64,000 nucleotides of DNA from an uncultured Acidobacteriota bacterium (GCA_913043225.1 CAJWLU010000006.1:45465-109464); one strand, 5' to 3'; shown: positions 16,494-57,807, counted from the first letter of the stretch. Notes: generated by a model from the letters alone, not told the origin. Made by a program: numbers and translations.

Positions 16494-17077
16494 TGGTCGA
16501 GGACACGCTCGCACCGTATGTCATCGAGGAGGCCCGGTCGAGCCGTTCGCGATGTCGGACTTGCCGGAAGAAGATCGAGAAGGGAAAGCTGCGCCTCGGT
16601 ATTTTGCTGGAGGGCCCTTATGGCACCGGGTATCTCTGGCACCACCTGACCTGCGCGGCGAGACGAAGACTCGAGGACGTGGAGGCGGCCTACGCCCAGC
16701 CTGCGTTCGAGAAGGGCCTGAAGGTCCCGGCGCTTGAGAAGCTGCAGGCGCTACAGGAGAAGGCTGAGAAGGAGCGCGCCGACCGAAAGGAGTTGCCCTA
16801 CGTTGAGAAGGCGCCTACCGGACGGTCGAAGTGCAAGCGTTGCGGTGCAGGTATCGAGCAGGACAGTTTCCGCGTGGTGCTCGCCCGTGAGGTGGCCTTC
16901 GGTAGCCAGGTCCGGAGTGGCCCCATTAACGTGCATCCGAAATGTGTGGCCGAGGAACTCGACACCGAAGACTGTATGACCGAGGTAGAGGGCTTCGGCG
17001 AGGCGCTCCACGCGCACAGCGGCCTTGACGCCGCCACGGTCGACGCGGCTCTGGCCGAGATAGGTTCCCTGGGCTAG
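16493..17077 (+). CDS. Tandem PARP-type zinc-finger protein (no catalytic domain)
   Basis: ATG 16493 shares its A with the upstream TGA (16491-16493). Two C-x2-C-x(26-30)-H-x2-C units sit in zf-PARP-like text: YVIEEARSSRSRCRTCRKKIEKGKLRLGILLEGPYGTGYLWHHLTC and YVEKAPTGRSKCKRCGAGIEQDSFRVVLAREVAFGSQVRSGPINVHPKC. No signal peptide. Confidence 0.7.
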   Translation: MVEDTLAPYVIEEARSSRSRCRTCRKKIEKGKLRLGILLEGPYGTGYLWHHLTCAARRRLEDVEAAYAQPAFEKGLKVPALEKLQALQEKAEKERADRKELPYVEKAPTGRSKCKRCGAGIEQDSFRVVLAREVAFGSQVRSGPINVHPKCVAEELDTEDCMTEVEGFGEALHAHSGLDAATVDAALAEIGSLG

Positions 17078-17178: not shown

Positions 17179-18210
17179 ATGAGCAAGTGGCGCACGTCGA
17201 CCAGTGTCGTGGTCTTTACGTTGGCAATCGTGGTCGCGGGTCCGGTTCTCGCGCAGGAGGCATGGACTCTGCCGCGCACGGCAGACGGCGATCCCGAGAT
17301 CGGTGGGGTCTGGGACTTCCGTACGCTTACCCCGCTGCAGCGTCCTGGAGATGCGGCTGAGCAGCTGACTGATGAAGAGGCGGCGGCCATCGAGGAGCGT
17401 TCCCGCCAGGCGGCGATTGAGGCCGACCGGCCCAGCGAAATACGCACCGAACCACTGCCGGTCGGTGCGCCGGTGGGCGGCTATAACAACTTCTGGTTCG
17501 ACCGTGGTGCGGGTGTCGTCGATGACAACCGTACGTCGCTTATCGTTTCCCCGGCCAGCGGGCGCGTGCCGGCTCTGCAGCCGGGCGTCGAAATGGTACG
17601 GCTCTCGCTAGGCGAGGACATTCCGGGCGGACAGCCGGTGCGCGTCCGTGCGGCCGGCATCGGGGCCTCTCACTGGAAAGACCGCGGCCTGGCTGAGCGG
17701 TGCTTGCTGGGCTTTAATTCAGGGCCTCCCATCGTGCCGGCCGGTTACAACCAGAACTTTCAGGTGTTTCAGACCAAGGACCACGTGGTCATTCTGCACG
17801 AGATGGTGCACGACTCGCGGATCGTGCCGCTCGACCGGAGGCCGCACCTGCCCGAGAGCATTCGGCAGTGGATGGGTGATTCCCGGGGCTACTGGGACGG
17901 CGATACGCTGGTGGTGGAGTCGAAGAATTTTACGGACCAAACCTCGAGCTTCAGCCCGTCGGTGACCATGGCGGCCGGCGACGGTACCACGCTGAACCTG
18001 ACTGAACGGTTTACGCGGGTGGCAGACGATACGCTGCTGTATGAGTTTACCGTCGACGACCCACAGACGTTTACTGAGCCGATCGTGGCCCAGATTCCTG
18101 TGAAACGCGGCGATATGATGTTCGAGTACGCGTGTCACGAAGGCAATTATGGGCTGGATAACATCCTGCGCGGCGCCCGCGAAGCCGAGCTCGCGGCTGC
18201 CGGCCAGTAG
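17179..18210 (+). CDS. Exported protein of unknown function, EYACHEGNYG-motif family, paralog P2
   Basis: ORF 17149-18210. ATG 17179 is preceded by AAGGAGAGG. Signal peptide (VVVFTLAIVVAGPVLAQ). Same blocks as P1/P3/P4 and ends ...FEYACHEGNYGLDNILRGAREAELAAAGQ. Confidence 0.85.
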   Translation: MSKWRTSTSVVVFTLAIVVAGPVLAQEAWTLPRTADGDPEIGGVWDFRTLTPLQRPGDAAEQLTDEEAAAIEERSRQAAIEADRPSEIRTEPLPVGAPVGGYNNFWFDRGAGVVDDNRTSLIVSPASGRVPALQPGVEMVRLSLGEDIPGGQPVRVRAAGIGASHWKDRGLAERCLLGFNSGPPIVPAGYNQNFQVFQTKDHVVILHEMVHDSRIVPLDRRPHLPESIRQWMGDSRGYWDGDTLVVESKNFTDQTSSFSPSVTMAAGDGTTLNLTERFTRVADDTLLYEFTVDDPQTFTEPIVAQIPVKRGDMMFEYACHEGNYGLDNILRGAREAELAAAGQ

Positions 18211-23429: not shown

Positions 23430-25178
23430 TCAGGGCAGTCGAAAGACGAAGAGCGTGTTACCGCGCGGTGGCTGCCTTATCTCGGGCGTTAGGCCACGGT
23501 GATTGACCCCGCCGCCGGTGGCGATGGCGACAAATTGGGCCCCGTCGTGCTCGTAGGAGACGGGGAAGCCGCCAGCGCTGGAATTCAGGATCTGCTCCCA
23601 GAGCACGTCGCCGGTCGAGACATCGAAGGCGCGGAACCGGCGCGCGTCATCGGTCACGAATACGAGCCCGCCTCCGGTGCTCAAGACGGAACCCCCGATG
23701 CCGGCGCGCTGGCGATGCACCCACCTGGGCTCGCCGGTCGCCAGATCCATCGCGGTGAACATGCCGACCTGTCCATTGGCCTCGGGCGCGATGGAGCGGT
23801 TGACGCGCGCAGATCCGTGGTGTCGTCCTGGTCGGTTGCGGAACTCGTTCAGCGTGAGGTCCATGCACACGTCATTGGTCGGGGCGAAGAGCGTGTTGCT
23901 GGCGGGGTTGTACGCGGTGGCCTGCCAGTTGATGCCGCCGATGAGGCTGGGACAGACAAAGACGGGCTCGCCCACCTGAGGGAACTTGAGCGCCTGGTTA
24001 AGGAGAACCCGCCGGCTCTCCGCGTCGATGTCCTCGACGACGTTCTGAGTATTGGTTGGCTGCGCCCAGAGAAACGCGCCGGTCGCGGCGTCGAGCGCCC
24101 ACACGATGCCGGTCTTGCCAGGAATCCCAGTGACGATCTTTCGACGATTCCCCGAGGTGATGCCGTTATTTCGCCACTCAACGTCGCCCGGTGAGACCTC
24201 GGTTTCGACCACGAGCCGGGCGAACGGATGGTCGAGGTCCCACTCGTCGTTCGGTATGTGCTGGAAGTACCAGGCAATCTCGCCCGTGTCGGCGTTTAGC
24301 GCCAGCGTCGAGTTGGTGTACAGCACGTCGCCGTCGCCGGTGCCGCGCTGCACCGAACCCCAAGGGATGGGGACGCCCACCCCGGTGTAGATCAGGTTCA
24401 GTTCTGGGTCGTAGCTCGGTGAGTTCCAGGGCGATCCGCCGCGGCGGTCCTCCTCGGGCACGTCGCCCCAGGTGTCGTAACCGAACTCGCCAGGGCCTGG
24501 AATGGTGTAGGTGCGCCAGTGTTCCTCGCCGGTGTCCGCGTTATGGGCGGAGACCCAGCAGCGGGTGTTGAGGTGATAGCAGCCGGACATGCCGATGACC
24601 ACCTGTCCCTTGATCACCATTGGTCCGCCGGAATAGTGCTGGCCGATCGTCCAGTCGCCGACTTGGACTTCCCATTCGACCTCGCCGCTCCGGGCGTTGA
24701 GCGCGAGTAGATGTGCGTCGTGGGTGCCGAGGAAGATCTTGTCGTCGTACAGCGCGCCGCTCCGGTTGGCGCAGGCCAGATTGGCCGGATGTTCGACTCG
24801 CTCCCGTCGGTATTCCCAGATGCGCGTGCCGTCGCGTAGGTCCAGCGCCTCGACGTAGTCGCAGGCTTGTACCAGAAACATCATCCCGTCGTGCACGAGG
24901 GGGGTGGTCTCTTGCAGCCCTTCGGCCATGGTCCAGGCCCACGCCAGCCGCAACGTGCCTACGTTCGAGGTGTTGATCTGAGTGAGCGGGCTGTGCCCCC
25001 AGTGGCCGTAGCTGCGGCGCCACATCAGCCAATCGCTGTCAGGCGGGTCGACCAGTTCCGCGTCGCTCACCGGCGTGTAGGCGAGGGCGATTGGCGATAA
25101 CTCCTCGGTTTGGGCTACGCCCGGGGTAGCGGTGGCCCCGACGAGCAGAACGCTGGTGACGAGAACTGCTGTTCGCAT
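23430..25178 (-). CDS. PQQ-dependent dehydrogenase, PQQ-2
   Basis: ORF 23430-25319(-). ATG 25178 gives signal peptide MRTAVLVTSVLLVGATATPGVAQ. Propeller repeats (ALDLRDGTRIWEY, ALNARSGEVEWEV, AHNADTGEEHW, ALNADTGEIAWYFQ, ALDAATGAFLW, AMDLATGEPRW, AFDVSTGDVLW). NDEWDLDHP active-site region. Paralogous to PQQ-7. Confidence 0.88.
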   Translation of the reverse strand: MRTAVLVTSVLLVGATATPGVAQTEELSPIALAYTPVSDAELVDPPDSDWLMWRRSYGHWGHSPLTQINTSNVGTLRLAWAWTMAEGLQETTPLVHDGMMFLVQACDYVEALDLRDGTRIWEYRRERVEHPANLACANRSGALYDDKIFLGTHDAHLLALNARSGEVEWEVQVGDWTIGQHYSGGPMVIKGQVVIGMSGCYHLNTRCWVSAHNADTGEEHWRTYTIPGPGEFGYDTWGDVPEEDRRGGSPWNSPSYDPELNLIYTGVGVPIPWGSVQRGTGDGDVLYTNSTLALNADTGEIAWYFQHIPNDEWDLDHPFARLVVETEVSPGDVEWRNNGITSGNRRKIVTGIPGKTGIVWALDAATGAFLWAQPTNTQNVVEDIDAESRRVLLNQALKFPQVGEPVFVCPSLIGGINWQATAYNPASNTLFAPTNDVCMDLTLNEFRNRPGRHHGSARVNRSIAPEANGQVGMFTAMDLATGEPRWVHRQRAGIGGSVLSTGGGLVFVTDDARRFRAFDVSTGDVLWEQILNSSAGGFPVSYEHDGAQFVAIATGGGVNHRGLTPEIRQPPRGNTLFVFRLP

Positions 25179-25309
25179 GGCATGAGGATACACCGGGTGG
25201 CGGCGACGGGAAGTGCTATCAGCGGCCGCTGTTGTCTCGGCGTGCGTACCGTGTCGGGCAGTCGGACGACCAGCTCGAGCTATTCCGCAAACGAGGCGCC
25301 GTGGGGACG

Positions 25310-25660
25310 CTAAACCCACTCAGGCGGAGGCGTGATCTCCTCGGACGGCGGCCGGCCAGCGGCTGGTCGACCCGAGCCTTCGAGTCGGCTGATCGCGCGG
25401 ACGCTCATGTCCTGGTCGCACTGAATCTGACACGACAGACGCACCCCGCTGATATTCCGCTCTTCGAACACCGCTTTTTCGGCCGTGGTCATCTTGCTGG
25501 GTTCGCCGTCGATGAATTCCACGCGACAGGTGGTGCACCGGGAGTTGCCGCCGCAGGCGTGCAGCACGTCCACTTCTGCATCCTGCTTCAGCGCCAGGAC
25601 GAGACGCTTGCCATCGGCTACGTTGACCGTGCCGTATCCTTCCACCGTGAGCTTGGGCAT
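25310..25660 (-). CDS. 2Fe-2S ferredoxin (fer2 domain), cytoplasmic
   Basis: 116-aa ORF with no signal peptide. Cys ligand pattern HACGGNSRCTTCRV ... LSCQ. Confidence 0.8.
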   Translation of the reverse strand: MPKLTVEGYGTVNVADGKRLVLALKQDAEVDVLHACGGNSRCTTCRVEFIDGEPSKMTTAEKAVFEERNISGVRLSCQIQCDQDMSVRAISRLEGSGRPAAGRPPSEEITPPPEWV

Positions 25661-26525: not shown

Positions 26526-28610
26526 CTAGTAACCCCCGCTGGCCGGTGCAGCCTCTGGGACGGCTACCGCGGCGATACCGTCAGCCAGTTGGACGATGAT
26601 GTACTGGTGCCCGTCGTGCACCCAGCTCGACATGCCGTAGCGCGTCACGCCCGGAATCTCGATGCCGCCGACCCGCTCGCCCGTCCGCTTGTCATAGGCG
26701 TAGAGCATCGGGGTGTTGTCGGCGCTCAAGCCCCCGGCAACCAGGAGCGTAGGTGTGACCACCATGGCCGCGTTCCCGCCACGGCCGCGGTTGATCTCAA
26801 TGTTCTCGAGCCCCTGGACCAGCGGGTGGTTCCGGATGGTGTCCTGCTGAGCCTCTGACGCATCGGAGGAGGGTACCGCCCACAGGTGGTCACCGGTGTT
26901 GAGGTCGATGGCCGTGATGCGACCCACTGGACCCTTCCAGATAGGAAGTCCGTCGATGGTGAACTGCTCGATGCTCCCGCGGACCGTCGTGGCCACCGCC
27001 GCGAAGTCGGTGTGCGTCGTGCCAGATTGTTCGAGCTCATCGAGTGGTGAGTCGACGCCAGGCATCACTTGAAGCCTGAAGCAACTGCTCTGCGAGCTGA
27101 CGAAGATCACCCCGTTCACCGGATCGGCGACTGCGGGGCCGGTGATGTTGGTGCCGCCGCCGCCGCCCGGACAGTTCCACGCTGGGCCAGCTGGATCGTC
27201 GGTGTGGGTGGGGGGATCGAACAGCCCGTTAAAGAGGTTGTTCTCCTCGGCCACCTGGCGCGCCATCTCCTTGATCTCGGGCGTGTAGTCGATCAGGTGA
27301 TCCTCGGTTCGTCCCTGCAGGTCATAGGGGGCAGGCTTGGTGGGGAAGGGCTGGGTTTCAGACAGCTTCTCTCCAGGAATTCTCGAGCTGGGAACCGGTC
27401 GCTCCTCGATCGGCCAGATCGGCTCGCCAGTCTCCCGGTCGAGAGCGTAGAGGAACGCCTGTTTGGTGGCCTGAAAGAGCCCCTTGATCTCACGACCGTC
27501 GACGGTTACGTCCATCAAGACCGGTGCGGTGGGAGTGTCGTAGTTCCAGATGTCGTGGTGCACCATCTGATAATGCCACTCCCGTTCACCGGTATCGGCA
27601 TTCAGCGCGATGATGCTCGTGCTGAATAGGTTGTCGCCAGGGTGATGTCCCCCGTAGTAGTCGATGGTGGGGCCGTTCGTTACGATGTAGACCAGCCCGA
27701 GCTCGGGGTCGGCTGCCATTGGAGCCCACGACGAGACGTCGCCGATCCACTGCCAAGCGTCGTTTTCCCAGGTATCGTGCCCGAACTCGCCGGGCCGCGG
27801 GACTACGTTGAACTTCCACTTGTGCTCGCCCGTCCGCACGTCGTAGCCGAGGATGTCTCCGGGGACGTTCTCGACGCGGGTCTGAAGGTAGCCCTGCTCG
27901 GCCGAGTTGCCCACGACGATGGTGTCGTTGACGACGATCGGCGGCGACGAAGCGGTGATGTAGCCGATTTCGATCGGGATGCCCTGGCCGGCGTCATAGG
28001 GGCGGTCCATGGCGAGCCACGGCCCCCAGTCGGCGATAAGGTCCTCGACCAAGTCGACCGTGCCGGTCTCGTTGAAGCCGTCGATCGGCACAGGACGACC
28101 CCAGTTCTCGAGCGGTTTTCCGGTCTCGACATCGAGGGCGTGGAGGAAGAACGCCGGGGAACTAATGAACACCACCCCGCGGCCATCGATCTCGGTGTAG
28201 GCGATGCCCTTGCCGTACCCCTTCCGCATGGAATAGTCGTGGCGAAATGTGTTGGGCTCGCGAAAGCTCCAGATCAGGTCCCCATTCTTCGGATCGATCG
28301 CCACAACGTGACGCCGGTCACCGGCGACCGTGATGAGCTTGCCGTCGATGTAGGATGGCGTAGCGCGCGGGGTGCTGGGGCCGAAGCTGGTCGCGCTCCA
28401 CTCCCACACGACCTCGAGGTCGTTGAAGTTGTCGGCCGTGATCTCGGTGGCCGGGGTGTATCGGGTATGCCAGGCGTCGCCGCCCAGATAGGTCCAGTTG
28501 CCATTCTCGGTGCCAGGCCCTTGAGCCAGCGCCGCACCGGGGAGGGCAAGTGCGCAGGCTAGCGCCGCCGCCAGCGCGAGCGGGGGCCTGCGTCGTTCGG
28601 TGGCTCTCAT
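26526..28610 (-). CDS. PQQ-dependent dehydrogenase (glucose-dehydrogenase-like, soluble), PQQ-3
   Basis: ORF 26526-28715(-). ATG 28610 gives MRATERRRPPLALAAALACALALPGAALAQ. Propeller repeats (AIDPKNGDLIW, ALDVETGKPL, GYDVRTGEHKW, ALNADTGEREWHYQ, ALDRETGEPIW, AIDLNTGDHLW, AYDKRTGERV). HHDIWNYDTP region. Confidence 0.88.
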   Translation of the reverse strand: MRATERRRPPLALAAALACALALPGAALAQGPGTENGNWTYLGGDAWHTRYTPATEITADNFNDLEVVWEWSATSFGPSTPRATPSYIDGKLITVAGDRRHVVAIDPKNGDLIWSFREPNTFRHDYSMRKGYGKGIAYTEIDGRGVVFISSPAFFLHALDVETGKPLENWGRPVPIDGFNETGTVDLVEDLIADWGPWLAMDRPYDAGQGIPIEIGYITASSPPIVVNDTIVVGNSAEQGYLQTRVENVPGDILGYDVRTGEHKWKFNVVPRPGEFGHDTWENDAWQWIGDVSSWAPMAADPELGLVYIVTNGPTIDYYGGHHPGDNLFSTSIIALNADTGEREWHYQMVHHDIWNYDTPTAPVLMDVTVDGREIKGLFQATKQAFLYALDRETGEPIWPIEERPVPSSRIPGEKLSETQPFPTKPAPYDLQGRTEDHLIDYTPEIKEMARQVAEENNLFNGLFDPPTHTDDPAGPAWNCPGGGGGTNITGPAVADPVNGVIFVSSQSSCFRLQVMPGVDSPLDELEQSGTTHTDFAAVATTVRGSIEQFTIDGLPIWKGPVGRITAIDLNTGDHLWAVPSSDASEAQQDTIRNHPLVQGLENIEINRGRGGNAAMVVTPTLLVAGGLSADNTPMLYAYDKRTGERVGGIEIPGVTRYGMSSWVHDGHQYIIVQLADGIAAVAVPEAAPASGGY

Positions 28611-28690
28611 ACGCCTTCTGCTCCTGGTAGTGTGTTCGGAACGCTCCGTCGACCATGTCATGGTAACAGCCAGCAGGGGCAGATGAGAAG

Positions 28691-29476
28691 GTGAGCACAG
28701 ACCCGCACCGCCCACACGACGCGTACTCCCGCGTGAACTACCGCCGTCTGTTTGCCTGGGAGCAGCGCATTACTCGCGAGGCGCCGCTCTTGCTAAGGCT
28801 GCTAGAGCAGGCACCAGACCGCTCGGTCCTGGACCTGGGCTGCGGCACTGGGGAGCATGTGGCGTTCTTTGCGGAGCAGGGAGCGCGTGCTGTGGGTCTC
28901 GATCTCTCGGACTCGATGATCTCGGTGGCACGTGGCTACGAGGAGGCGGGAAAGGGCCGCTTCGTGTTGGGCGACGCGACGGAAGCGCAGGCCCTGCTTG
29001 TCGACGATCCACCGTTTGGACTGGCGATTTGCCTGGGCAACATGTTGCCGCACCTCGAGGACGCGGATCTGGGCCGGTTCCTGCAGGCCACGCGGGCAAA
29101 GCTACTGCCTGGGGGCACAGTGATGATCCAGTTGCTCAACTATGAGCCGGTGCTCGACGGTGGGCGACGGGCGCTCCCGGTAAACGTCCGCTCGGGTGAC
29201 GACGGCAAGGAGATCGTGTTCGTGCGGGTGATGTCGAGGGGCGCGCCGGGTCGCGTACTGTTCTTCCCCTCGACGTTGGAGCTCGACCCTAAAGCGAAAG
29301 AGCCGCTCAGTGTGAGGTCGAGTAGACGGCTTGACCTTCGCGCCTGGACGAGGGATGACCTCGAGCCGGTACTAGACGAAGTTGGCTTCGACGCTAGCTT
29401 CGCCGGTGAGATAACGGGCGCGGAATTCGAGCCGAACCGTTCTGCGGACCTGGTCGTGATGGCTCGGCGTCGTTGA
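28691..29476 (+). CDS. Class I SAM-dependent methyltransferase
   Basis: 261-aa ORF (GTG start). Motif I VLDLGCGTGEH followed by AVGLDLS. Confidence 0.85.
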   Translation: MSTDPHRPHDAYSRVNYRRLFAWEQRITREAPLLLRLLEQAPDRSVLDLGCGTGEHVAFFAEQGARAVGLDLSDSMISVARGYEEAGKGRFVLGDATEAQALLVDDPPFGLAICLGNMLPHLEDADLGRFLQATRAKLLPGGTVMIQLLNYEPVLDGGRRALPVNVRSGDDGKEIVFVRVMSRGAPGRVLFFPSTLELDPKAKEPLSVRSSRRLDLRAWTRDDLEPVLDEVGFDASFAGEITGAEFEPNRSADLVVMARRR

Positions 29477-32209: not shown

Positions 32210-32920
32210 TCAGTCGGCCGGAGGGTGGGGTGCACGCTGATAGCGGAGCGCATTTCCCTCCTTTCCGCAGATGGTAAGGGCGCCGCCCTCGCGCAGGACG
32301 TAGGCTAGTTTCTGCGCCAGCCGGCGGGGCTGGGCGAGTGCCTCTCCTAGCTCGGCCGTTGTGAACTGCTCCGGAAGCGGAGAGCGGAGGAGTCCGAATA
32401 GGTCGTGGAGTGCACGGAAGCGGTGCCGGCTAACAATGCGGGTTAGCTCTCGCGATTCGACCCGCCAGCCGCCTCGACGCCGAGTCCGCTTCGGATCGTA
32501 TCTCCGGAGTTCGTCTAGTTCGACCATCACGACCTCGATCTCGAAATTGGGGTGAGCGAGCAGGTCGGGAATGTAGACGAGTTCTGAGGCGACGAGAGCT
32601 GGGTGACCGTGTTTGGGGGATCTGCGACAGGTGGGGGGACTGACCCCGTCCATCGAGAGCTTCACGATCCGGTAACGTGCCGCGATCGGATGCACGAGGA
32701 CGACGCGGTGTTGCTGGAGGAGCGCCCGCAGTTTTCGACGGATGGCGCTAAAGCCGGCCGTCTGGATTTCATACAGGACGCCGTCCGTGCCTCGGACGTC
32801 TGCCACGAAGTCGCCAGCGGGCACCTCGATCGCGCTATCGCCCGACCGCCCATACTGGTGTAAATACTCAAGCTTGAGTGCTTCGTGTAGCGGTCCCTCG
32901 TTCAGCGTTCCGATGGGCAT
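32210..32920 (-). CDS. Hypothetical protein, possible PD-(D/E)xK nuclease fold
   Basis: 236-aa ORF with no signal peptide. N-terminal GTLNEGPLHEALK, then DFVADV...VLYEIQTAGF (D...D-x(n)-E-x-Q pattern). The C-terminal third looks winged-helix-like. No family name recognised. Confidence 0.6.
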   Translation of the reverse strand: MPIGTLNEGPLHEALKLEYLHQYGRSGDSAIEVPAGDFVADVRGTDGVLYEIQTAGFSAIRRKLRALLQQHRVVLVHPIAARYRIVKLSMDGVSPPTCRRSPKHGHPALVASELVYIPDLLAHPNFEIEVVMVELDELRRYDPKRTRRRGGWRVESRELTRIVSRHRFRALHDLFGLLRSPLPEQFTTAELGEALAQPRRLAQKLAYVLREGGALTICGKEGNALRYQRAPHPPAD

Positions 32921-33251: not shown

Positions 33252-34241
33252 ATGCGTCAGCGAAGTCTTGCCGCAGTGTTCGTCCTGAGTGCGATCGTGA
33301 CACCGATGCTGATGTCGGCGCAGGACGCCGGGGGTGTACCGATGCGGACCGTGGACGGACATCCTGACATTTCCGGGATGTTTACCTTTCGGACCCTGAC
33401 GCCGTTCGAGCGTCCGGCGCAATTCGAGGGGCTAGAAACTTTAGGTGTCGAAGAAGCCGCTGCGTTCGAAGCATCGGAACGGACTCGTCAGAACCGCGAC
33501 CTATTCGATCCGGAGAGGGGCGCTCGCACCGCCGGGTACGCGCCACGGTCGGAAGGCGGGGTGCTCTCCTATAACGAGTTCTGGTACGAGCGCGGGGTCG
33601 AGTTAACGTCGGACAAGCGGACGTCGCTCATCGTTGACCCGCCGGACGGGCGGCGCCCTCCGAGGACTGCGGCCGGGCAGGCGGCGTTGGCTCGCCGCCG
33701 TGCGCACACCGAGGTCCACCGCTACGACTCGTATGAAAACCGTACGATGTCCGACCGGTGCCTCGGCACGTCGCTGGCGGGCCCCCCGATGCGATCGGGC
33801 GCCTACAACAACAACGCGATGATCTTCCAGACGGCTGACTATGTAGTCATCCAGAACGAGATGGCGAATCAGTCGCGCATCATCCCACTCGACGATCGGG
33901 TGAGGCCCCCATTTGCTCAGCTGAAGGGTCTGTCTCGCGGGCGGTGGGAAGGGGAGACTCTGGTTGTCGAGACGACGAACTTTCGGGCAGATAGTTCGGT
34001 GACTGGCCAGAACTTGCACTTGGTCGAGCGGTTGACCCGGCTCGACGCTGACACCGTGACCTACGAATACACCGTGACCGACCCCACGGTGTTTACGGCG
34101 CCCTATACCGTCATGATGCCGCTTCGACGGACCGACGGTCCGATCTTCGAATACGCCTGCCACGAGGGGAATATTGGGATGTACGGCATTCTGGCCGGAG
34201 CGCGTAATCTAGAGCGGCTTGGCCGCGAATTGCGCCCTTAA
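33252..34241 (+). CDS. Exported protein of unknown function, EYACHEGNYG-motif family, paralog P3
   Basis: ORF 33057-34241. ATG 33252 is preceded by GGAAGGAG. Signal peptide (AAVFVLSAIVTPMLMSAQ). Family blocks are present and it ends ..FEYACHEGNIGMYGILAGARNLERLGRELRP. Confidence 0.85.
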   Translation: MRQRSLAAVFVLSAIVTPMLMSAQDAGGVPMRTVDGHPDISGMFTFRTLTPFERPAQFEGLETLGVEEAAAFEASERTRQNRDLFDPERGARTAGYAPRSEGGVLSYNEFWYERGVELTSDKRTSLIVDPPDGRRPPRTAAGQAALARRRAHTEVHRYDSYENRTMSDRCLGTSLAGPPMRSGAYNNNAMIFQTADYVVIQNEMANQSRIIPLDDRVRPPFAQLKGLSRGRWEGETLVVETTNFRADSSVTGQNLHLVERLTRLDADTVTYEYTVTDPTVFTAPYTVMMPLRRTDGPIFEYACHEGNIGMYGILAGARNLERLGRELRP

Positions 34242-34288
34242 AGTCGAATTCAAATCGTAAGCTCCGTCGCTATCGCAAGGAGAAGTAG

Positions 34289-36352
34289 ATGCTGCCTCGT
34301 TCCCGCTACGTCGTCTTGGCCACATTGCTCGCGCTTGGTCTGGCCGGGGGCGTCGGCCTCCGGTCACAAGGGCCAACCGGCGGGTATCCCCGCAGCGACT
34401 GGCCTTTGGCCGGCGGAGACCGGTCGAGCACTCGGTATTCGGCCCTCACCGAGATCTCCACCGAGACGATCGAGCGTCTCGGAGGTGCCTGGGTGACGCG
34501 GTTTGAGGGGGGCGCGTCTTCACGTGCGACTCCGGTTGTTCAGGACGGCGTGCTGTACCTCACTGGCGGCGCGAACGTGTACGCGCTCGATGCGAGGAAT
34601 GGCGACCAGATCTGGCGCTGGCAGGCCCAGGACGGCAGCGGCATGGTGCCGTCGTGGCAGGGCGTCGGCTTGAGCGATGACCTGGTCTTCGTAGGGCTGC
34701 GGAGTGGCGAGGTGATGGCCCTTCGTAGGGATACGGGGGAGCAGGTCTGGAACGAACGGGTCGGTAGTGATCCGCATCAGGATGGCGAAGCTGTGACGTC
34801 GGCCCCGATGTATGCCCTGGGGCGAGTGTTCGTTGGGTTGGCCAACGGAGACACTGGGGGGCAGGGTCGGATCATTGCGCTCGACGCCGAAACTGGTCAG
34901 ACCCAGTGGACGTTCTTCATCGTTCCGCGCCCAGGCGAGTTCGGGCACGAGACCTGGCCGCAAGACTCGGACTCGTGGGAACTGGGTGGCGGTGGCGTGT
35001 GGCTGTTGGGTACCGTCGATCCGGAGCTGGGTCTGGTCTATTTCTCCACTGGTAACCCGGCCCCGATGTTCGGGGGTGAGATCCGCGAGGGCGACAACCT
35101 CTTTACCGCGTCGGTGCTGGCGTTGGACGTGGAGACGGGCGAACGGCGGTGGCATTACCAGGTGGTACGGCATGATGTCTGGGACGCAGACATCGCAACC
35201 CCGTTGCTGCTCTACGACCACGACACCGGGACCGGCGCACCGCGCAAGGCCGTGGCCGCCATGCGTGCCGATGGGATCCTGTTTCTTTTCGATCGAGAGA
35301 CCGGGGAGCCGTTGATCGAGATCGAGGAGCGCGAAGTCCCACAGGACGAGTACCAGAAGACGGCGCCAACCCAGCCGTTTCCGGTGGGCGTTGAGAGTAT
35401 TCTTCCCGACTGTTCGTACTGGCGCGACCGAGTGCCACCGCCCTTCGAACTCAGCTGCAGCAGCTACACCCCGCCGATGGTGAACGAACACACTATCGTG
35501 GCGCCGAATGTGCCTATTCCGCGGGTGCGGGTTACCCCGATGTCATTCAGTCCGCAGACCGGCTACATCTATGCTCAAGGCCGGGCCGTGGTCGGGCGCG
35601 CACGCCGGTTCGAAGATCCATTCCACTGGCGGCTCGACGACAACGAACTAACCCTGCCGGATCCGGTCGGGGTGCTGGCGGCGGTCGACACGCGCACCCA
35701 GGAAATTGTCTGGAAGCACGAAATGCCGGCGTCGTGGCTGGGCACGAGTGGTCCGCTGACCACGGCAGGAGGGTTGATGTTCAGAGCCTCGGCCGGCGGA
35801 CAGGTGGAGGCCTACGATGCTGCGAGTGGCGATCGGCTCTGGACCTTCCGGACGAGCCCGGAAGGGGCTATCGTGCGGCCGGGTCCGGCGAGCACCTATG
35901 AGGTCGACGACACGCAGTATCTGTTGATTCCGATGGGCGCTGAGCTGTGGGCGTTCGCGCTCGATGGCGAGATTCAGGCAAGGGGCGAGCCGATACTGGA
36001 TCCGTTCAACGGATATGAGCGGGCGCAGCCGCAGCCCACCCGGACCCGGCGGATCGAAACCGCGACGCTGGTCGAGGGAGTGCGAGGGATGGTGGGCGGC
36101 ACCCGCTATGGTTTCGACGAGCACCGGTTTAACCCAGTGCGCGCGCTTGTAACCCAGGGCACCCGCGTCCAGTTCATCAACAACGGCGAAGAGGCGCACA
36201 CCATCGCGGCGCGGGACGGGAGCTGGTCGACCGATGCCATCGAGAGCGCCGAGTGGGGCTATGCCACCTTCGACGAGGTAGGGACCTTCCTGTATCACTG
36301 CGCCGACCACCCGTGGGCGATTGGGCAGATCACGGTCGAGGCCGCAGAGTAG
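34289..36352 (+). CDS. PQQ-dependent dehydrogenase fused to C-terminal amicyanin-like cupredoxin domain, PQQ-4
   Basis: 687-aa ORF 47 nt after P3, with a signal peptide. Propeller repeats (ALDARNGDQIWRWQ, ALRRDTGEQVW, ALDAETGQTQW, ALDVETGERRWHYQ, LFDRETGEPL, AVDTRTQEIVW, AYDAASGDRLW). HDVWDADIATP region. The last ~100 aa read GTRVQFINNGEEAHTIAARDG...GTFLYHCADHPWAIGQITVE, a cupredoxin His...Cys-x2-His pattern. Confidence 0.9.
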   Translation: MLPRSRYVVLATLLALGLAGGVGLRSQGPTGGYPRSDWPLAGGDRSSTRYSALTEISTETIERLGGAWVTRFEGGASSRATPVVQDGVLYLTGGANVYALDARNGDQIWRWQAQDGSGMVPSWQGVGLSDDLVFVGLRSGEVMALRRDTGEQVWNERVGSDPHQDGEAVTSAPMYALGRVFVGLANGDTGGQGRIIALDAETGQTQWTFFIVPRPGEFGHETWPQDSDSWELGGGGVWLLGTVDPELGLVYFSTGNPAPMFGGEIREGDNLFTASVLALDVETGERRWHYQVVRHDVWDADIATPLLLYDHDTGTGAPRKAVAAMRADGILFLFDRETGEPLIEIEEREVPQDEYQKTAPTQPFPVGVESILPDCSYWRDRVPPPFELSCSSYTPPMVNEHTIVAPNVPIPRVRVTPMSFSPQTGYIYAQGRAVVGRARRFEDPFHWRLDDNELTLPDPVGVLAAVDTRTQEIVWKHEMPASWLGTSGPLTTAGGLMFRASAGGQVEAYDAASGDRLWTFRTSPEGAIVRPGPASTYEVDDTQYLLIPMGAELWAFALDGEIQARGEPILDPFNGYERAQPQPTRTRRIETATLVEGVRGMVGGTRYGFDEHRFNPVRALVTQGTRVQFINNGEEAHTIAARDGSWSTDAIESAEWGYATFDEVGTFLYHCADHPWAIGQITVEAAE

Positions 36353-37064: not shown

Positions 37065-38963
37065 ATGAAGCACAGTGCGGTCAGCATCATGCGGCATTTC
37101 CTGGCGGGTGTCGTACTCGTGACCCTCGCTGTATCAACGGTGTTGGCTCAGGACGACTGGCGGCATTGGGGGCGGGATTTGGGTAATCAACGGCATTCGC
37201 CGTTGACTCAGATCGACGCCGATAACGTCGATCAGCTTGAGCTAGCTTGGCGCTACGAGATGCCGCGGCCCGGCACGCCATCGCGGCCGGCGCAGTCGAC
37301 ACCGTTGATGGTCGACGGGGTCTTGTATCTCTCGTTCCCCTACTACCGGGTGGTCGCGGTGGTGCCAGAAACGGGCCAAGAACTGTGGGACTACACCGCG
37401 CCCGGACAGTGGGACTCGGCCGAGCACCAGCAGCACTGGACCGGAGGATCGATGCGGGGTCTGGCCTACTGGGATGGGCAGAATGGTATTGCGCCGCAGA
37501 TAGTGTTCGGAACCGAGGAAGGGGAGCTGATCTCACTGAACGCCGCCACTGGTATTCCCGGCGCCCACTTCGGGAACGACGGCTATGTAGATCTGAAGAC
37601 CGAGGACGTCATGAACGGCTTTCCGAATATGCACTACGGGATCGGTTCGGGCGTAGCCATCTACAAGCACCTGGTCTTCACCCCGGTTCACAACGCCGAC
37701 GAGACCGGCTCGAAGGGGCCAGCCGGCGACGTGCGCGCCTGGGATCTTCGGACTGGCGAACTGGTGTGGACGTTCCACACCGTGCCGCACCCCGGAGAGT
37801 TCGGCAACGACACCTGGCTGGATGGTTCGTGGGAGCGCGTCAGCGGAGCGAACACGTGGAGCTTCTTTACTATCGACGAGGAGCGCGGCATTCTCTATAT
37901 GCCTCTGGGGTCGGCGCTTAACGATTTCTATGGCATGGATCGGCCCGGCGACAACCTGTTCGCGAACTCCATCGTGGCAGTCGATGCGATGACAGGTGAA
38001 CGGCTGTGGCACTTCCAGGCCGTCCACCATGACCTGTGGGATCTCGACATGCCGGTGCCGCCGATCCTGTTCGATGTCGAACGGGATGGCGAGGCCATTC
38101 CTGCGGTCGGCGTGATGACGAAGTTTCCGGTGCTCTTCATCTTCAACCGAGTGACCGGCGAGCCAATCTACGAGATTGAGGAGCGTCCCGTCCCGGCGGG
38201 TAACATGCAGGGAGAGTATTACTCGCCGACCCAGCCCTTCCCGGTGAAGCCTCCGGTCTTCGGGCGGATCGATTTCACGATGGACGACATCGCCACGGTC
38301 ACCCCGGAGCACACCGCGGCGTGCCGCGAGCGACTGATGGCGTATGACGGTGGACGTAATCGGGGAGCCTACACGCCGCCATCGCTCGAGGGCGCGCTGG
38401 TGTTTCCGTCGACGGGCGGAGGAACCGAGTTTACCGGTGGGACGTTTGATCCGGAACTGGGCTACTACATCATCAATTATGCCGACACCGGCCACATCAG
38501 CACGCTGGAGCCGGTGGGTGTGAACTCGGATCGGCGAGGGTACGTGGGCCCGCCTGAGTCACGTCGGCGGTACTGGCACATCGTTGACCGGTTGAGCGTC
38601 GACGGCTGGCCCTGCTGGCAGCCACCCTGGTCGCAACTGGTGGCCGTCGATGTCAACAGCGGTGAGATCGCCTGGAAAATTCCGTTTGGTACCGTTGAGG
38701 GGGCGCCGCCCGGACTGCTCACTGGGGCTCCGAACTCCCAGAAGGGCGGCCCCACGTCGACCGCCGCAGGGATTTTCTTCATCGGCGGCGCCTCGGACCG
38801 GATGTTTCGCGCCTATGAAACCAAGACCGGGCGCGAGTTGTGGAGTGTCGAGACCGAGCAGATGATCAGCGGGTCGAATCCGATTGTCTACATGGGGGAG
38901 GACGGCAAGCAGTATGTGGCCGTGGCTGCGGGCACGACATTGTTGGCCTATGCCCTGCCGTGA
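37065..38963 (+). CDS. PQQ-dependent dehydrogenase (glucose/quinate-dehydrogenase-like, soluble), PQQ-5
   Basis: 632-aa ORF with a signal peptide. Propeller repeats (VVPETGQELWDY, SLNAATGIP, AWDLRTGELVW, AVDAMTGERLWHFQ, IFNRVTGEPIY, AVDVNSGEIAW, AYETKTGRELW). HHDLWDLDMP region. Confidence 0.88.
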   Translation: MKHSAVSIMRHFLAGVVLVTLAVSTVLAQDDWRHWGRDLGNQRHSPLTQIDADNVDQLELAWRYEMPRPGTPSRPAQSTPLMVDGVLYLSFPYYRVVAVVPETGQELWDYTAPGQWDSAEHQQHWTGGSMRGLAYWDGQNGIAPQIVFGTEEGELISLNAATGIPGAHFGNDGYVDLKTEDVMNGFPNMHYGIGSGVAIYKHLVFTPVHNADETGSKGPAGDVRAWDLRTGELVWTFHTVPHPGEFGNDTWLDGSWERVSGANTWSFFTIDEERGILYMPLGSALNDFYGMDRPGDNLFANSIVAVDAMTGERLWHFQAVHHDLWDLDMPVPPILFDVERDGEAIPAVGVMTKFPVLFIFNRVTGEPIYEIEERPVPAGNMQGEYYSPTQPFPVKPPVFGRIDFTMDDIATVTPEHTAACRERLMAYDGGRNRGAYTPPSLEGALVFPSTGGGTEFTGGTFDPELGYYIINYADTGHISTLEPVGVNSDRRGYVGPPESRRRYWHIVDRLSVDGWPCWQPPWSQLVAVDVNSGEIAWKIPFGTVEGAPPGLLTGAPNSQKGGPTSTAAGIFFIGGASDRMFRAYETKTGRELWSVETEQMISGSNPIVYMGEDGKQYVAVAAGTTLLAYALP

Positions 38964-46314: not shown

Positions 46315-47538
46315 CTATGGCGCGGGCTCGATTCTGAGCACCGCGCCGTCCTGCATGTCGGTGGTGAGATAGAGGTAGCCGTCCGGGCCCTGCTTGACGT
46401 CACGGATCCGTTGACCGAGGGTGGCGAACAGCGTTTCTCGGCGGCGCTCCAGGTTGTTGGCGTTGAACTGGATGCGAGAAACCTGCCGTCCGATCAGGCC
46501 TCCCACAAACAGGTCGCCGGTCCACTCGGGAAACTGGTCGCCGGTATAGAAGGCCATGCCGGCGATGGCGATCGACGGGGTGTAGTAGAGAAACGGCTCC
46601 TCCATCCCCGGCGCCGACGTGGGTGGCTGCACCGTAGGGGGCGGGAGACCCGAGCGCGCCCCTTCCGGATCGCTCGAATACGCTCGCCCGTAGGTCACGA
46701 CCGGCCAGCCATAGTTCAGGCCCGGTCGGATGACGTTGACCTCGTCGCCACCCTGAGGGCCGTTCTCTGTCTCCCACAACTGCCCGGTCTCAGGGTGGAA
46801 GGCCATGCCGATGGCGTTTCGGATGCCCAGGACGTAGAGCTCTGGCAGATGGCCAGGTTCGTTCAAGAACGGGTTGTCGTCGGGAATCGACCCGTCGTCG
46901 TTCAGGCGAAGGAGTTTCCCGCCGTGGTGCTGCGGGTCCTGCGCCCAGCCGGTCTCGCCGGCCACGGTGCCGAACCCCGGGGCGCCGATCGCCACGAACA
47001 GCTTGTCGTCGGGGCCGAAGATGGCGCGGATGGCTGATGGTCCGTCGGTCCAGGACACGGACTCGAAGATCTGCTCGGTGTCGACCAGCCGATGCCCGTC
47101 GAGCCGCCCGCGGTGGATCACGGCCGTCTGGACCCTTGGGTCATCCGGCTTCGGCGTCCAGAAGCTGACGTAGACCAGGCCGTTGTCCTCGAAGCGTGGA
47201 TGGACCGTGACATCGACGCCAGCGGTGTCCCGTCGTTGGCTGGTGATGGGCGCCGGGAGGCCGATGATGGGGGTGGGGTCGAGCGCGTCGTTGCTGATAC
47301 GACGGAGCGCCGACGTATTCTGCTCGGTCACCAGCAGGTCGCCATCAGGCAGGAAAGCGAGCGCCCAGGGATAGGTGAGGCCCTTGATCGGAACGACCCG
47401 CACCGGGCCGGTCTGGGTCGCCACTATCTGCGGTTCGTCAGGGAGCGCCGGTTGCGCCAGGACGGAGGCGGCGAGAAGGAGTCCGCCGAACGACACGGCG
47501 GTCACGATGACGGTGCGAAGTCGGGACTGGGTGGCCAT
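46315..47538 (-). CDS. Soluble PQQ-dependent sugar (glucose/sorbosone) dehydrogenase, 6-bladed propeller type
   Basis: 407-aa ORF with a signal peptide. LTYPWALAFLPDGDLLVTEQ, HHGGKLLRLNDDGSIPDDNPF, GIRNAIGMAFHPETGQLWETENGPQGGDEVN and GLNYGWP are hallmarks I associate with GDH-B/sorbosone dehydrogenases. Confidence 0.85.
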   Translation of the reverse strand: MATQSRLRTVIVTAVSFGGLLLAASVLAQPALPDEPQIVATQTGPVRVVPIKGLTYPWALAFLPDGDLLVTEQNTSALRRISNDALDPTPIIGLPAPITSQRRDTAGVDVTVHPRFEDNGLVYVSFWTPKPDDPRVQTAVIHRGRLDGHRLVDTEQIFESVSWTDGPSAIRAIFGPDDKLFVAIGAPGFGTVAGETGWAQDPQHHGGKLLRLNDDGSIPDDNPFLNEPGHLPELYVLGIRNAIGMAFHPETGQLWETENGPQGGDEVNVIRPGLNYGWPVVTYGRAYSSDPEGARSGLPPPTVQPPTSAPGMEEPFLYYTPSIAIAGMAFYTGDQFPEWTGDLFVGGLIGRQVSRIQFNANNLERRRETLFATLGQRIRDVKQGPDGYLYLTTDMQDGAVLRIEPAP

Positions 47539-52682: not shown

Positions 52683-52688
52683 ATTATA
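52683..52688 (-). promoter_or_regulatory. Candidate -10 box TATAAT (minus strand)
   Basis: The minus strand reads GTTATAAT-AT-[palindrome]-CTACAATACAATA-ATG. The hexamer overlaps the TAA stop of the upstream gene (52684-52686) and lies 36 nt before ATG 52646. Confidence 0.45.
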
Positions 52689-53931: not shown

Positions 53932-53991
53932 CTGGGACTCCTGCTGATGGTCGAGCAAAACGGTGATTGTATGTCGAACGGGGGGGCGCGG

Positions 53992-57771: not shown

Positions 57772-57777
57772 CTCGCG

Positions 57778-57807
57778 AGACTATCGACCGTTCGCGACCG
57801 ATGTCAA
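57778..57807 (-). promoter_or_regulatory. Candidate promoter TTGACA-18 nt-TAGTCT
   Basis: The minus strand reads TTGACA (57807-57802), an 18-nt spacer, then TAGTCT (57783-57778). The -10 ends only 6-12 nt before the candidate start codons, implying a leaderless or very short leader. This conflicts with the GAGG Shine-Dalgarno-like sequence. Confidence 0.3.

Follow-up and report, generated by a model that had tools for sequence, protein, structure and literature searches.

Here, we identified in an uncultured Acidobacteriota bacterium two genes whose products join an N-terminal PQQ-type dehydrogenase propeller to a C-terminal cupredoxin domain, and which represent a real, uncharacterised variant of quinoprotein dehydrogenases. 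They belong to a family of thousands of ~690-aa proteins, found mostly in Acidobacteria, and the Tara MAG GCA_002722915.1 holds a protein identical to one of the two, fusion a below. The original prediction knew of no characterised example; likewise, our literature search found no paper describing a PQQ-cupredoxin fusion family. With regard to mechanism, we consider it reasonably probable that these proteins are periplasmic or exported 8-bladed quinoprotein dehydrogenases of the methanol/ethanol-dehydrogenase superfamily that carry a tethered single-copper cupredoxin at the C-terminus. The features discussed below are located as follows in the window, that is, the whole 64,000-nucleotide stretch of DNA analysed.

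5-1048, plus strand: P1, P-family paralogue by homology, followed by an amidase gene (context)
17179-18210, plus strand: P2, P-family paralogue by homology, followed by an Amidohydro_2 enzyme gene (context)
33252-34241, plus strand: P3, ORF of 329 aa, starting at the Met where homologues begin
34289-36352, plus strand: fusion a, ORF of 687 aa, exported PQQ-type dehydrogenase with C-terminal cupredoxin domain
34394-35968, plus strand: propeller domain of fusion a, aa ~36-560, from alignments to 1kb0 and PedH (6zcv/6zcw)
34850-34852 (D188), 35054-35056 (N256), 35183-35185 (D299) and 35189-35191 (D301), plus strand: putative metal/PQQ-site codons of fusion a, alignment-based (W238 too)
36104-36349, plus strand: cupredoxin domain of fusion a, aa ~606-687, from the tail profile against PDB and the AF2 model
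36197-36199 (H637), 36299-36301 (C671) and 36308-36310 (H674), plus strand: candidate copper-ligand codons of fusion a, from conservation in tails
36317-36319, plus strand: A677 codon of fusion a, at the axial-Met position in the alignment to amicyanin
55744-57771, minus strand: fusion b, ORF of 675 aa, paralogue of fusion a
~55747-55989, minus strand: cupredoxin domain of fusion b, ligand candidates H628, C662 and H665, with Thr668 at the axial position
58011-58985, minus strand: P4, ORF of 324 aa, P-family paralogue

The ORFs of P3 and fusion a, the intergenic gap of 47 nt and the signal-like N-termini of both proteins (MRQRSLAAVFVLSAIVTPMLMSAQ in P3) agreed with the gene boundaries first proposed for this pair. 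P3 contains FEYACHEGNIGMYGILAGAR, followed by 11 further residues (NLERLGRELRP), and the tail strings GTRVQFINNGEEAHTIAARDG and GTFLYHCADHPWAIGQITVE were found in fusion a. A second pair had been noticed at 55744-58985, and we indeed found P4 upstream of fusion b on the minus strand, with a gap of 239 nt that contains a sigma-70-like site (57807-57780) within chance expectation. Identity was 44% between P3 and P4 and 43% between the two fusions. Besides P3 and P4, the window contains P1 and P2, which had gone unmentioned.

The proposal that the N-terminal part of the fusions is an 8-bladed PQQ dehydrogenase was borne out by both sequence and structure comparisons. PF01011 matched fusion a with E=2.7e-81, and both fusions passed the threshold of this Pfam family (274.5 and 273.6 bits; cutoff 26.7). 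Fusion a matched 1kb0 in PDB (E=1.7e-62), and a propeller profile matched 1kb0 (3.7e-78) and PedH (8.3e-78). When the AF2 model of fusion a (pLDDT 76) was used as a Foldseek query, the best matches were 1kv9, 1kb0 and 6zcv (E~1e-33 to 1e-35), and the whole model yielded propeller matches only. The propeller is closest to type II quinohaemoprotein ADHs and to the lanthanide-dependent PedH. Scores against TIGR03075 (methanol/ethanol family, NCBIfam) were 313.9 bits for copy a and 275.9 bits for copy b, both below the cutoff of 480, so that by the score rule the fusions are divergent relatives of this family and not members of it. The top NCBIfam model for copy a was TIGR04528 ('acido-empty-quinoprotein group A'), with 326 bits far below its cutoff of 650. 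The divergence of the propeller, the score below the TIGR03075 cutoff and the identity of the top model all count against our preferred reading.

In 1kb0 and PedH, PQQ/metal-site residues are found opposite T170, W238, N256, D299 and D301 of fusion a. In an alignment of 33 family members (A1), D188, W238, N256 and D301 were invariant, and T170 and D299 nearly so. Within the metal-ligand/base set of 1kb0 (E185, N263, D308), copy a keeps N256 and D299 but has the invariant Asp188 for the Glu; in copy b, Glu294 occupies the place of the catalytic Asp (motif W-E-H-D). The W-D299-A-D301 motif of copy a aligns with W-D-F-D of PedH and shows the D-x-D pattern, an extra Asp two residues past the catalytic Asp that is accepted as a lanthanide marker (PMC11996626). 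On this basis, the metal of the fusion a site is probably a lanthanide. The vicinal Cys-Cys ring is absent, as neither fusion contains CC, and C116-C117 of 1kb0 and the CC of PedH align with S-W of a conserved MVPSWQG. In addition, Glu70 and Arg122 of 1kb0 align with Arg79 and Gln124 of fusion a, and a Pfam survey of the ORFs detected no pqq biosynthesis genes within the window. The missing ring, the replaced Glu, the Arg79/Gln124 pair, the Glu of copy b and a window free of pqq genes should be listed among the points that count against the preferred reading.

Several of these observations are also what would be expected if the propeller were 'empty' or bound something other than PQQ, serving as a binding or scaffold module or housing another cofactor, with the cupredoxin as the sole redox centre or merely structural: the TIGR04528 match, the loss of the Cys-Cys ring together with the substitution of several PQQ-contact residues, the Glu for catalytic Asp in copy b and the lack of pqq genes in the window. 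However, the TIGR04528 score reaches only half its cutoff, and it is difficult to see why D188, W238, N256 and D301 would be completely conserved, and T170 and D299 nearly so, if there were no metal/PQQ site. Moreover, PQQ can be imported, high-affinity uptake being widespread according to one report (PMC12124388), and marine Acidobacteria MAGs are reported to carry up to 70 Ln-PQQ-DH genes (PMC11996626). A propeller devoid of PQQ is unlikely.

The C-terminal ~80 aa of the fusions are a cupredoxin homologue, in the position taken by cytochrome c in type II quinohaemoprotein ADHs. A profile of the tails matched the NirK-tethered C-terminal cupredoxin of 9cck_A (1.9e-13), amicyanin (1e-8) and 5fc9 (2.5e-8) in PDB, and residues 606-687 of the AF2 model of fusion a are all-beta, with 7-8 strands and pLDDT 87-95. 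No CxxCH haem motif is present in either fusion. The idea that a blue-copper-like domain occupies the place of the haem domain was supported. Checks of the tail against family models were divided: some family members have a precomputed PF13473 match, whereas the two tails as single sequences remained below the Pfam cutoffs (PF00127, 17.8 bits, E=0.004 for fusion a, cutoff 21.2; PF13473, 16.6 and 14.1 bits, cutoff 27), and these single-sequence scores count against the preferred reading. Outside the fusions, the tails come closest to multi-repeat cupredoxin proteins, whose sites have the canonical H..C..H..M form, and an HT(V/I)xAxDGSW motif is common to both groups.

The His...Cys-x2-His equatorial set of type-1 copper proteins is present in the fusions. 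His637, Cys671 and His674 were invariant in alignment A1, and across distinct tails sharing 42-100% identity they were conserved at ~98% (62/63, 61/62 and 61/62, respectively). The axial Met/Gln is missing, the residue at this position being Ala in 52, Ser in 5, Thr in 3 and Met in 2 distinct tails. Opposite Met98 of amicyanin stand Ala677 of copy a (HPWAIG) and Thr668 of copy b (HPWTIG), so that the position-for-position correspondence with amicyanin that had been proposed holds for His, Cys and His and fails at the fourth ligand. Gln680 was ruled out as a substitute axial ligand because most members have Glu there. With the axial Met not kept, the copper site is probably an 'open' type-1 site, like that of the Nitrosopumilus purple cupredoxin; an Ala, Ser or Thr in place of the Met would be expected to leave a 'perturbed' type-1 copper that is three-coordinate or capped by water. 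The change at this position could also point to a different chemistry and not to simple electron transfer, which counts against the preferred reading.

Such chemistry might go as far as catalysis at the copper, in which electrons from PQQH2 would turn over O2, NO or nitrite at the open axial position and the protein would act as an oxidase in its own right or as a dehydrogenase linked to NO or nitrite. The systematic exchange of the axial Met for small residues would be in line with this, and so would Nmar_1307 (5fc9), with its HPW[non-Met]xG loop, perturbed type-1 copper with axial water (PMC12109610) and reported oxidation of NO to nitrite, which is its proposed role (PMC6790972). In PDB, the tail is most closely related to a domain attached to a nitrite reductase, and no conserved external acceptor gene lies near the fusions. 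On the other hand, 9cck and the multi-repeat relatives, which presumably transfer electrons, keep the canonical Met; PQQ-cupredoxin-cytochrome c triple fusions suggest a place within an electron-transfer chain; and neither a second copper site nor further catalytic residues can be discerned. Catalytic copper is quite improbable, and equally improbable is a new lanthanide/PQQ/copper 'quinocuproprotein' class built on it, one that would reduce O2, NO or nitrite directly at an open type-1-like copper, work without a respiratory partner and be abundant in deep-ocean Acidobacteria with their dozens of PQQ enzymes.

The analysis directly shows the domain homologies, the conserved residues, the broad distribution of the fusion and the absence of a fixed gene partner. 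In the preferred reading, that of a dehydrogenase with a tethered copper electron carrier, we infer that the protein binds PQQ, a lanthanide and copper, and likewise which way electrons flow and what is oxidised. An alcohol, aldehyde or sugar-type substrate would be oxidised at the PQQ/metal site, with D188, N256, D299 and D301 as candidate residues and, given D-x-D, probably a lanthanide as the metal. The fused copper centre (His637, Cys671, His674), standing where type II ADHs have their haem c domain, would then re-oxidise PQQH2 in two one-electron steps. Reduced copper would pass electrons to a soluble periplasmic carrier and on to the respiratory chain, a carrier role that in some relatives probably falls to a third, fused cytochrome c domain, as in the triple fusions L150 and P0357. 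Neither a cytochrome c gene nor any other conserved neighbour was found beside the fusions in the surveyed gene neighbourhoods, which fits a self-contained first electron-transfer step. It had been taken as established that PQQ alcohol dehydrogenases donate to separate or fused cytochromes c; this premise is incomplete, in that, according to a review, the type II PQQ alcohol dehydrogenase of bacteria naturally donates to the blue-copper protein azurin (PMC8348568). For enzymes of this class, a copper acceptor is therefore less unusual than was previously implied.

The original prediction also paired P with the PQQ-cupredoxin enzyme in a dedicated cassette of two genes, in which P would serve in cofactor or copper delivery, in substrate binding or as the next redox partner. 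Each of the only two fusions in the window is indeed directly preceded by one of the four P genes found there, and the arrangement is retained at L081, a close orthologue locus (90% and 91% identity), and at L158, where the pair shows 99-100% identity to P4 and fusion b. P was also found before a fusion at a few divergent loci (L103 and L154; fragments in L114 and L150). However, among the 54 fusion genes for which 1.1 kb or more of upstream DNA was available, P lay directly upstream in only 5, two of them orthologues of the window's own pairs, and P was missing before fusion orthologues of 65-82% identity. From the opposite side, none of the 119 P genes with a callable downstream neighbour (80 genome loci) was directly followed by a fusion; the next gene was another P gene in 28 cases and a plain PQQ gene in one, and the downstream partners of P were heterogeneous (Amidohydro_1 in 6 of 41, DUF6152 in 3 of 41 and many singletons). 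Within the window, P1 and P2 precede the amidase and the Amidohydro_2 enzyme instead. Since P4 is as near to P2 (44.2% identity) as to P3 (43.9%), duplication of the pair as a unit is not indicated. The neighbourhood survey has largely refuted the cassette, as the adjacency said to mark a 'conserved upstream partner' is not conserved in other genomes, an outcome that the original prediction itself had named as refuting it, and P is very unlikely to be a dedicated partner of the fusion.

P is a large, uncharacterised, multi-copy exported family with at least 7976 homologues. P3 shows the motifs YNxFWxxRG and EYACHEGN and the conserved residues Cys170 and Cys303; apart from this Cys pair and the CH dipeptide, no redox or metal-binding motif could be recognised in P, which further argues against the cassette. 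The original statement that P has no known function still stands: P3 and P4 had no Pfam match even at E<=10 and no NCBIfam match, and the P-family profile found nothing better than E=1.9 in PDB. The AF2 model of P3 had a pLDDT of 60, and Foldseek detected in its C-terminal beta region a weak likeness to FABP/calycin barrels (E=5e-4, TM 0.53 by target, at that pLDDT). P genes often occur in tandem arrays or upstream of amidohydrolases; they merely share 'islands' of exported catabolic enzymes with the fusions and are a separate matter. It follows from the negative pairing result that P should be studied as an independent exported family and not as an enzyme accessory.

Quinoprotein dehydrogenases are the textbook case of electron transfer to haem, either in a separate cytochrome c or, in ADHs of types II and III, in a fused one. 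A third architecture would be added by a large natural family whose fused domain is a cupredoxin, and an unusual one at that, its site having no axial Met. A single polypeptide would then link the use of lanthanide, PQQ and copper and would offer bioelectrochemists a haem-free, self-wired dehydrogenase scaffold. In ecological terms, the family belongs to marine Acidobacteria, known for up to ~70 lanthanide-type PQQ dehydrogenases per genome (PMC11996626), and the route of these enzymes into respiration bears on the oxidation of dissolved organic matter by such bacteria and on their trace-metal demand, with lanthanides and copper rather than iron.

Among known systems, the type II quinohaemoprotein ADHs (ADH IIB/IIG; 1kb0, 1kv9 and 1yiq) are the best sequence and fold match for the propeller. 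Both groups share a plan in which a signal peptide precedes the 8-bladed PQQ propeller and a linker leads on to a small one-electron redox domain at the C-terminus, and the physiological acceptor reported for the type II enzymes, azurin, is likewise a cupredoxin. In contrast, their C-terminal domain is a cytochrome c with CxxCH, they are of the Ca type with D-x-T where fusion a has D-x-D, and they have the Cys116-Cys117 ring that the fusions lack. The lanthanide PQQ ADHs (PedH 6zcv/6zcw; XoxF 6dam and 4mae) match the fold and share D-x-D with fusion a, whereas they consist of a single domain and rely on a separate cytochrome; they also keep the Cys-Cys ring and a Glu metal ligand, for which fusion a has Asp188, and fusion b has E-x-D.

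The tail is homologous to amicyanin, the acceptor of TTQ methylamine dehydrogenase (1aac and others); the WINxxxxxH and YxCxxHP segments can be aligned between the two, with His53, Cys92 and His95 of amicyanin among the matched positions. The amicyanin equivalog TIGR02657 (NCBIfam) gave 16.7 bits for copy a and 26.1 bits (8.6e-6) for copy b, far below its cutoff of 110.2. The axial Met98 is replaced in the fusions, and the best-matching amicyanin chain in PDB, 2idq, also has Ala there (HPFARG). Amicyanin is a free-standing protein whose gene lies in mau clusters, and the Pfam survey of ORFs showed no mau genes and nothing pointing to a methylamine dehydrogenase cluster in the window. Nmar_1307 of Nitrosopumilus maritimus shares with the tails the HPW-x-x-G loop without axial Met (HPWRVG), but it is free-standing and archaeal and has Arg at the axial position where fusion a has Ala. 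The closest solved relative of the tail is the tethered cupredoxin of the copper nitrite reductase 9cck (residues 338-408), which has the motifs HTV..D..F/W..G and C.xHPW in common with it. Although its partner is NirK and not a quinoprotein, its axial Met is kept (HPWMKG) and electrons presumably flow into NirK, not out, 9cck provides a precedent for the fusion of this cupredoxin subtype to an enzyme with which it exchanges electrons.

The ORF calls bore out the original description of two gene pairs in the window, coordinates included. Each pair consists of a gene for a P-family protein (P3 or P4) and a gene for a protein with a PQQ dehydrogenase-type propeller and a C-terminal cupredoxin domain, or tail (fusion a or fusion b):

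33252-34241, plus strand, P3, ORF of 329 aa
34289-36352, plus strand, fusion a, ORF of 687 aa
58011-58985, minus strand, P4, ORF
55744-57771, minus strand, fusion b, ORF of 675 aa

The spacing is 47 nt between P3 and fusion a and 239 nt between P4 and fusion b. P3 and P4 share 44% identity, and the two fusions share 43% over their full length including the tails. P3 begins with a signal-peptide-like sequence, MRQRSLAAVFVLSAIVTPMLMSAQ, and carries FEYACHEGNIGMYGILAGAR close to its C-terminus with 11 residues beyond it; the N-terminus of fusion a is also signal-like. Promoter and terminator scans around both pairs gave nothing informative. A protein identical to fusion a is on record from the Tara Oceans MAG GCA_002722915.1 (PBMW01000018.1) and from a JGI marine metagenome, and close relatives of both P3 and fusion a come from Acidobacteria/Vicinamibacterales MAGs.

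The propeller proposed for both long proteins was recovered by Pfam, in which fusion a and fusion b match PF01011 (PQQ dehydrogenase propeller) with E~1e-81. The nearest solved relative of this domain is the quinohaemoprotein alcohol dehydrogenase (ADH) 1kb0 (1.7e-62 with a single sequence, 3.7e-78 with a family profile), and the lanthanide-dependent PedH (6zcv/6zcw) is also among the best. An AlphaFold2 model of the fusion, based on a 33-sequence family alignment, had a mean pLDDT of 76 and a pTM of 0.78, and its top Foldseek matches were 1kv9, 1kb0 and 6zcv (E 1e-33 to 1e-35). The whole-model match list contained propellers only and is silent on the tail.

Alignment of fusion a to 1kb0 and PedH revealed that several active-site residues are kept, including the PQQ-stacking Trp (W238), Thr170, the Asn metal ligand (N256) and the catalytic Asp (D299). 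Two residues past D299 lies an invariant Asp (D301), so that W-D-A-D of fusion a is aligned with W-D-F-D of PedH; this D-x-D motif is a marker of lanthanide dependence (PMC11996626). Other positions differ from those of characterised enzymes: the Glu metal ligand of 1kb0 (E185) is an invariant Asp (D188) in the fusion family, Glu70 and Arg122 of 1kb0 correspond to Arg79 and Gln124 in fusion a, and the vicinal Cys-Cys ring of characterised PQQ ADHs is absent, with a conserved MVPSWQG in its place. Fusion b has Glu294-His-Asp296 (W-E-H-D, encoded at 56884-56892), with Glu at the catalytic Asp position; two of the surveyed loci, L155 and L157, encode close relatives of the same subfamily. The NCBIfam methanol/ethanol subfamily model scored 314 bits for fusion a and 276 bits for fusion b, both below its curated cutoff of 480, and the best NCBIfam match of fusion a was an 'acido-empty-quinoprotein' model at half its cutoff. 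A propeller that is 'empty' or not a quinoprotein would be compatible with this last match and with the altered positions; set beside the kept Trp, Thr, Asn and Asp residues, we consider it unlikely. The fusions are therefore described here as divergent relatives of PQQ ADHs and not as proven quinoproteins, and they probably use a lanthanide, judging from their active-site residues.

When the last ~120 residues were scanned alone, matches to PF00127 (E=0.004) and PF13473 (E=0.008 and 0.05) were all below gathering thresholds, as were the NCBIfam amicyanin and halocyanin matches of the fusions; several family members have a precomputed PF13473 match. A profile built from 22 family tails and searched against PDB sequences was decisive in placing the tail, at the sequence level, among cupredoxin homologues. 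It matched the C-terminal cupredoxin domain of a copper nitrite reductase (9cck_A residues 338-408, domain E 1.9e-13), the Nitrosopumilus 'blue copper domain protein' 5fc9 (2.5e-8), amicyanins (~1e-8) and plastocyanins (1e-6 to 1e-3). In the AlphaFold2 model, residues ~606-687 form an all-beta domain of 7-8 strands with a pLDDT of 87-95.

When the tail was run exhaustively by phmmer against 1.84 billion representatives, 4542 proteins were returned at E<=1e-3, and the top matches were proteins with 3-12 tandem copies of the same domain type. The tail and the repeats of four such proteins (P0246, P0250, P0277 and P0307) have an HT(V/I)xAxDGSW motif in common, and nearly all of these repeats have a canonical H...C-x2-H-x2-M copper site. 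In many of the sequences P0241-P0390 from this search, the tandem cupredoxin domains are joined by Pro/Thr/Ala-rich linkers, and P0246 and P0307 have a hydrophobic C-terminal end, perhaps a membrane anchor; these proteins look like long copper 'wires'.

The amicyanin likeness claimed for the tail held for the His, Cys and His ligands and failed for the axial Met. All 33 sequences of the family alignment keep His637, Cys671 and His674, and in an unbiased tblastn survey of 63 tails they occurred in 62/63, 61/62 and 61/62 distinct tails, respectively. The position of amicyanin Met98 is occupied by Ala in copy a and by Thr in copy b; over the distinct tails surveyed it is Ala in 52, Ser in 5, Thr in 3 and Met in 2. 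Two replacements for this ligand were ruled out: Gln680 as a stellacyanin-like axial ligand, as this position is Glu in 47/62 tails, and Asp643 or Trp646 as compensating ligands, as the DGSW motif is also present in canonical Met-containing repeats. Known structures with a similar loop include 2idq, the best PDB amicyanin match, which reads HPFARG and has Ala at the Met98 position like fusion a, and the natural cupredoxin 5fc9, which reads HPWRVG. The latter is a 'purple cupredoxin' with a perturbed type-1 copper and an axial water (PMC12109610). Given the replaced Met, the unsuited Gln680 and the axial water of the Met-less 5fc9, it is most likely that the family has a three-residue, water-accessible, type-1-like copper site.

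One rival view would make such an open site a catalytic centre for O2, NO or nitrite, and NO oxidation has been reported for the purple cupredoxin 5fc9 (PMC6790972). On the other side stands a triple fusion, in which the PQQ propeller and a cupredoxin domain (HPWS, no axial Met) are followed by a C-terminal CxxCH cytochrome c domain. It was found in L150, a soil metagenome contig (Ga0126371_10030403), and in P0357, a representative fragment. The cytochrome c domain after the cupredoxin suggests that, at least in some relatives, the copper domain is one link of an electron-transfer chain, and a catalytic role of the copper site appears quite improbable to us.

The fusion is widespread, with 5989 relatives returned by a word-indexed search. 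The best 120 of them are mostly 684-706 aa long (range 667-745) and 65-96% identical, and their fullest label is 'PQQ-binding-like beta-propeller repeat protein'. In 79 metagenome loci the fusion genes are often tandemly duplicated. They were inspected for a shared neighbour, for instance a copper chaperone, a cytochrome c or another cupredoxin, and genes of the last two kinds were not seen beside the fusions at all. What recurred was FtsH in 6 loci and a GSDH-like multidomain protein in 9, each confined to subsets of related contigs.

The P protein had been proposed as a conserved upstream partner of the fusion, and this was contradicted by the survey of P homologues. We examined 80 loci in species-representative genomes (Vicinamibacterales, Bryobacterales, Pseudohongiella and other Gammaproteobacteria), in which 124 P genes were called, 119 of them with a callable downstream neighbour. 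None of the 119 was directly followed by a fusion, one had a plain PQQ gene close downstream, and in 28 cases the next gene was a further P gene, the tandem arrays reaching about 6 copies. Other genes close downstream were Amidohydro_1 (6/41), DUF6152 (3/41) and singletons. Seen from the other gene, based on tblastn coordinates, 54 fusion genes had 1.1 kb or more of sequence upstream, and only 5 of them were directly preceded by a P gene; two of these five (L081 and L158) are orthologues of the window, and fusion orthologues at 65-82% identity are without a P gene. Nor is there support for a joint duplication of the two genes, since P4 is equally close to P2, a further paralogue in the window (44.2%), and to P3 (43.9%). 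With 4 P genes and 8 PQQ genes among the ~51 genes of the window, our reading is that the adjacency is local and occasional, reflecting no conserved functional pairing, and that both gene types are dense in islands. A dedicated two-component cassette, for which the two pairs in the window would speak, is very improbable in view of the lack of conserved adjacency across genomes, an outcome that the original prediction had itself named as refuting.

P3 has at least 7976 relatives, among which no informative name was found. Neither P3 nor P4 had a Pfam match even at E<=10 or an NCBIfam match, and a P-family profile gave no usable match among PDB sequences. Many polar residues are invariant in the family, as are two cysteines (C170 and C303). 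The better-modelled C-terminal part of P3 (residues ~185-295, eight strands) had weak Foldseek matches to FABP/calycin-type barrels (E=5e-4); no fold was assigned because these matches were weak and the AlphaFold2 model, from a 26-sequence alignment, was poor (pLDDT 60). Within the window, one P paralogue lies upstream of an amidase gene, one upstream of an Amidohydro_2 enzyme gene, and the other two, P3 and P4, upstream of fusion a and fusion b. In Vicinamibacterales and Bryobacterales genomes, P genes form tandem arrays with between 3 and about 6 copies (L043, L074, L075, L055, L058 and L064), and the family is also found in Pseudohongiella and other Gammaproteobacteria MAGs. Expanded PQQ dehydrogenase repertoires have been reported for these same two host groups.

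The window is an island of exported catabolic enzymes that is dense in quinoproteins. It contains eight PQQ-type propellers, a soluble GSDH-type dehydrogenase, amidases, esterases and others; genes for pqq biosynthesis and cytochromes c were not found within it. The propellers other than the fusions, and the GSDH-type enzyme, are as follows:

2735-4453, PQQ-type propeller
23430-25319, PQQ-type propeller
26526-28715, PQQ-type propeller
37065-38963, PQQ-type propeller
61279-63012, PQQ-type propeller
63028-63984 (partial), PQQ-type propeller
46315-47538, soluble GSDH-type dehydrogenase

Those at 23430, 37065 and 61279 have W-D-L-D (lanthanide-type D-x-D) and no Cys-Cys, and the 2735 gene alone among these propellers has the CC pair together with a Ca-type W-D-Y-T. 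This density agrees with a published account of a few marine Acidobacteria MAGs with as many as 70 lanthanide-type PQQ dehydrogenases (PMC11996626).

Several other genes of the window deserve mention. A 195-aa bacterial protein (16490-17077) has two PARP-type zinc-finger matches (PF00645, E=1e-20), and an ADP-ribosylglycohydrolase-family protein (52684-53958) has a hydrophobic signal-like N-terminus. Between P4 and another PQQ dehydrogenase lies a gene (59296-61170) for a 624-aa protein with a twin-arginine-like N-terminus, SRRDFMENAALLVGAAAASG, the C-terminal end CPCCGGSA and a weak linalool dehydratase/isomerase match (PF18566, E=3e-10). A single long ORF with a TTG start (15675-16493) has an AhpC/TSA-like part together with a DsbD N-terminal domain and may be a merger of two genes. 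The gene divergent from P3, at 32210-32920 (minus strand), is matched to DUF8091 (PF26351) by the source contig's precomputed annotation and had no match in our own Pfam scan.

For the fusion protein, we regard it as moderately likely that the whole chain runs from a periplasmic dehydrogenase, probably lanthanide- and PQQ-dependent, through the tethered copper domain, which would re-oxidise the reduced cofactor, to a soluble carrier that this domain would then reduce. Open-access full texts, two recent surveys of lanthanide PQQ enzymes included, yielded no account of a PQQ dehydrogenase with a fused cupredoxin. Within that literature, neither this combination nor a copper site that systematically lacks the Met has been described. 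The domains themselves are familiar, and a fused one-electron acceptor is already a known design principle. The cassette part of the original prediction fails, an acceptor with copper has a precedent in this enzyme class, and the cofactors are all assigned by inference. Their plan would be that of a type II quinohaemoprotein with copper replacing the haem, which is plausible because a review names azurin as the natural acceptor of type II ADH (PMC8348568) and the same cupredoxin subtype is tethered to NirK (9cck).
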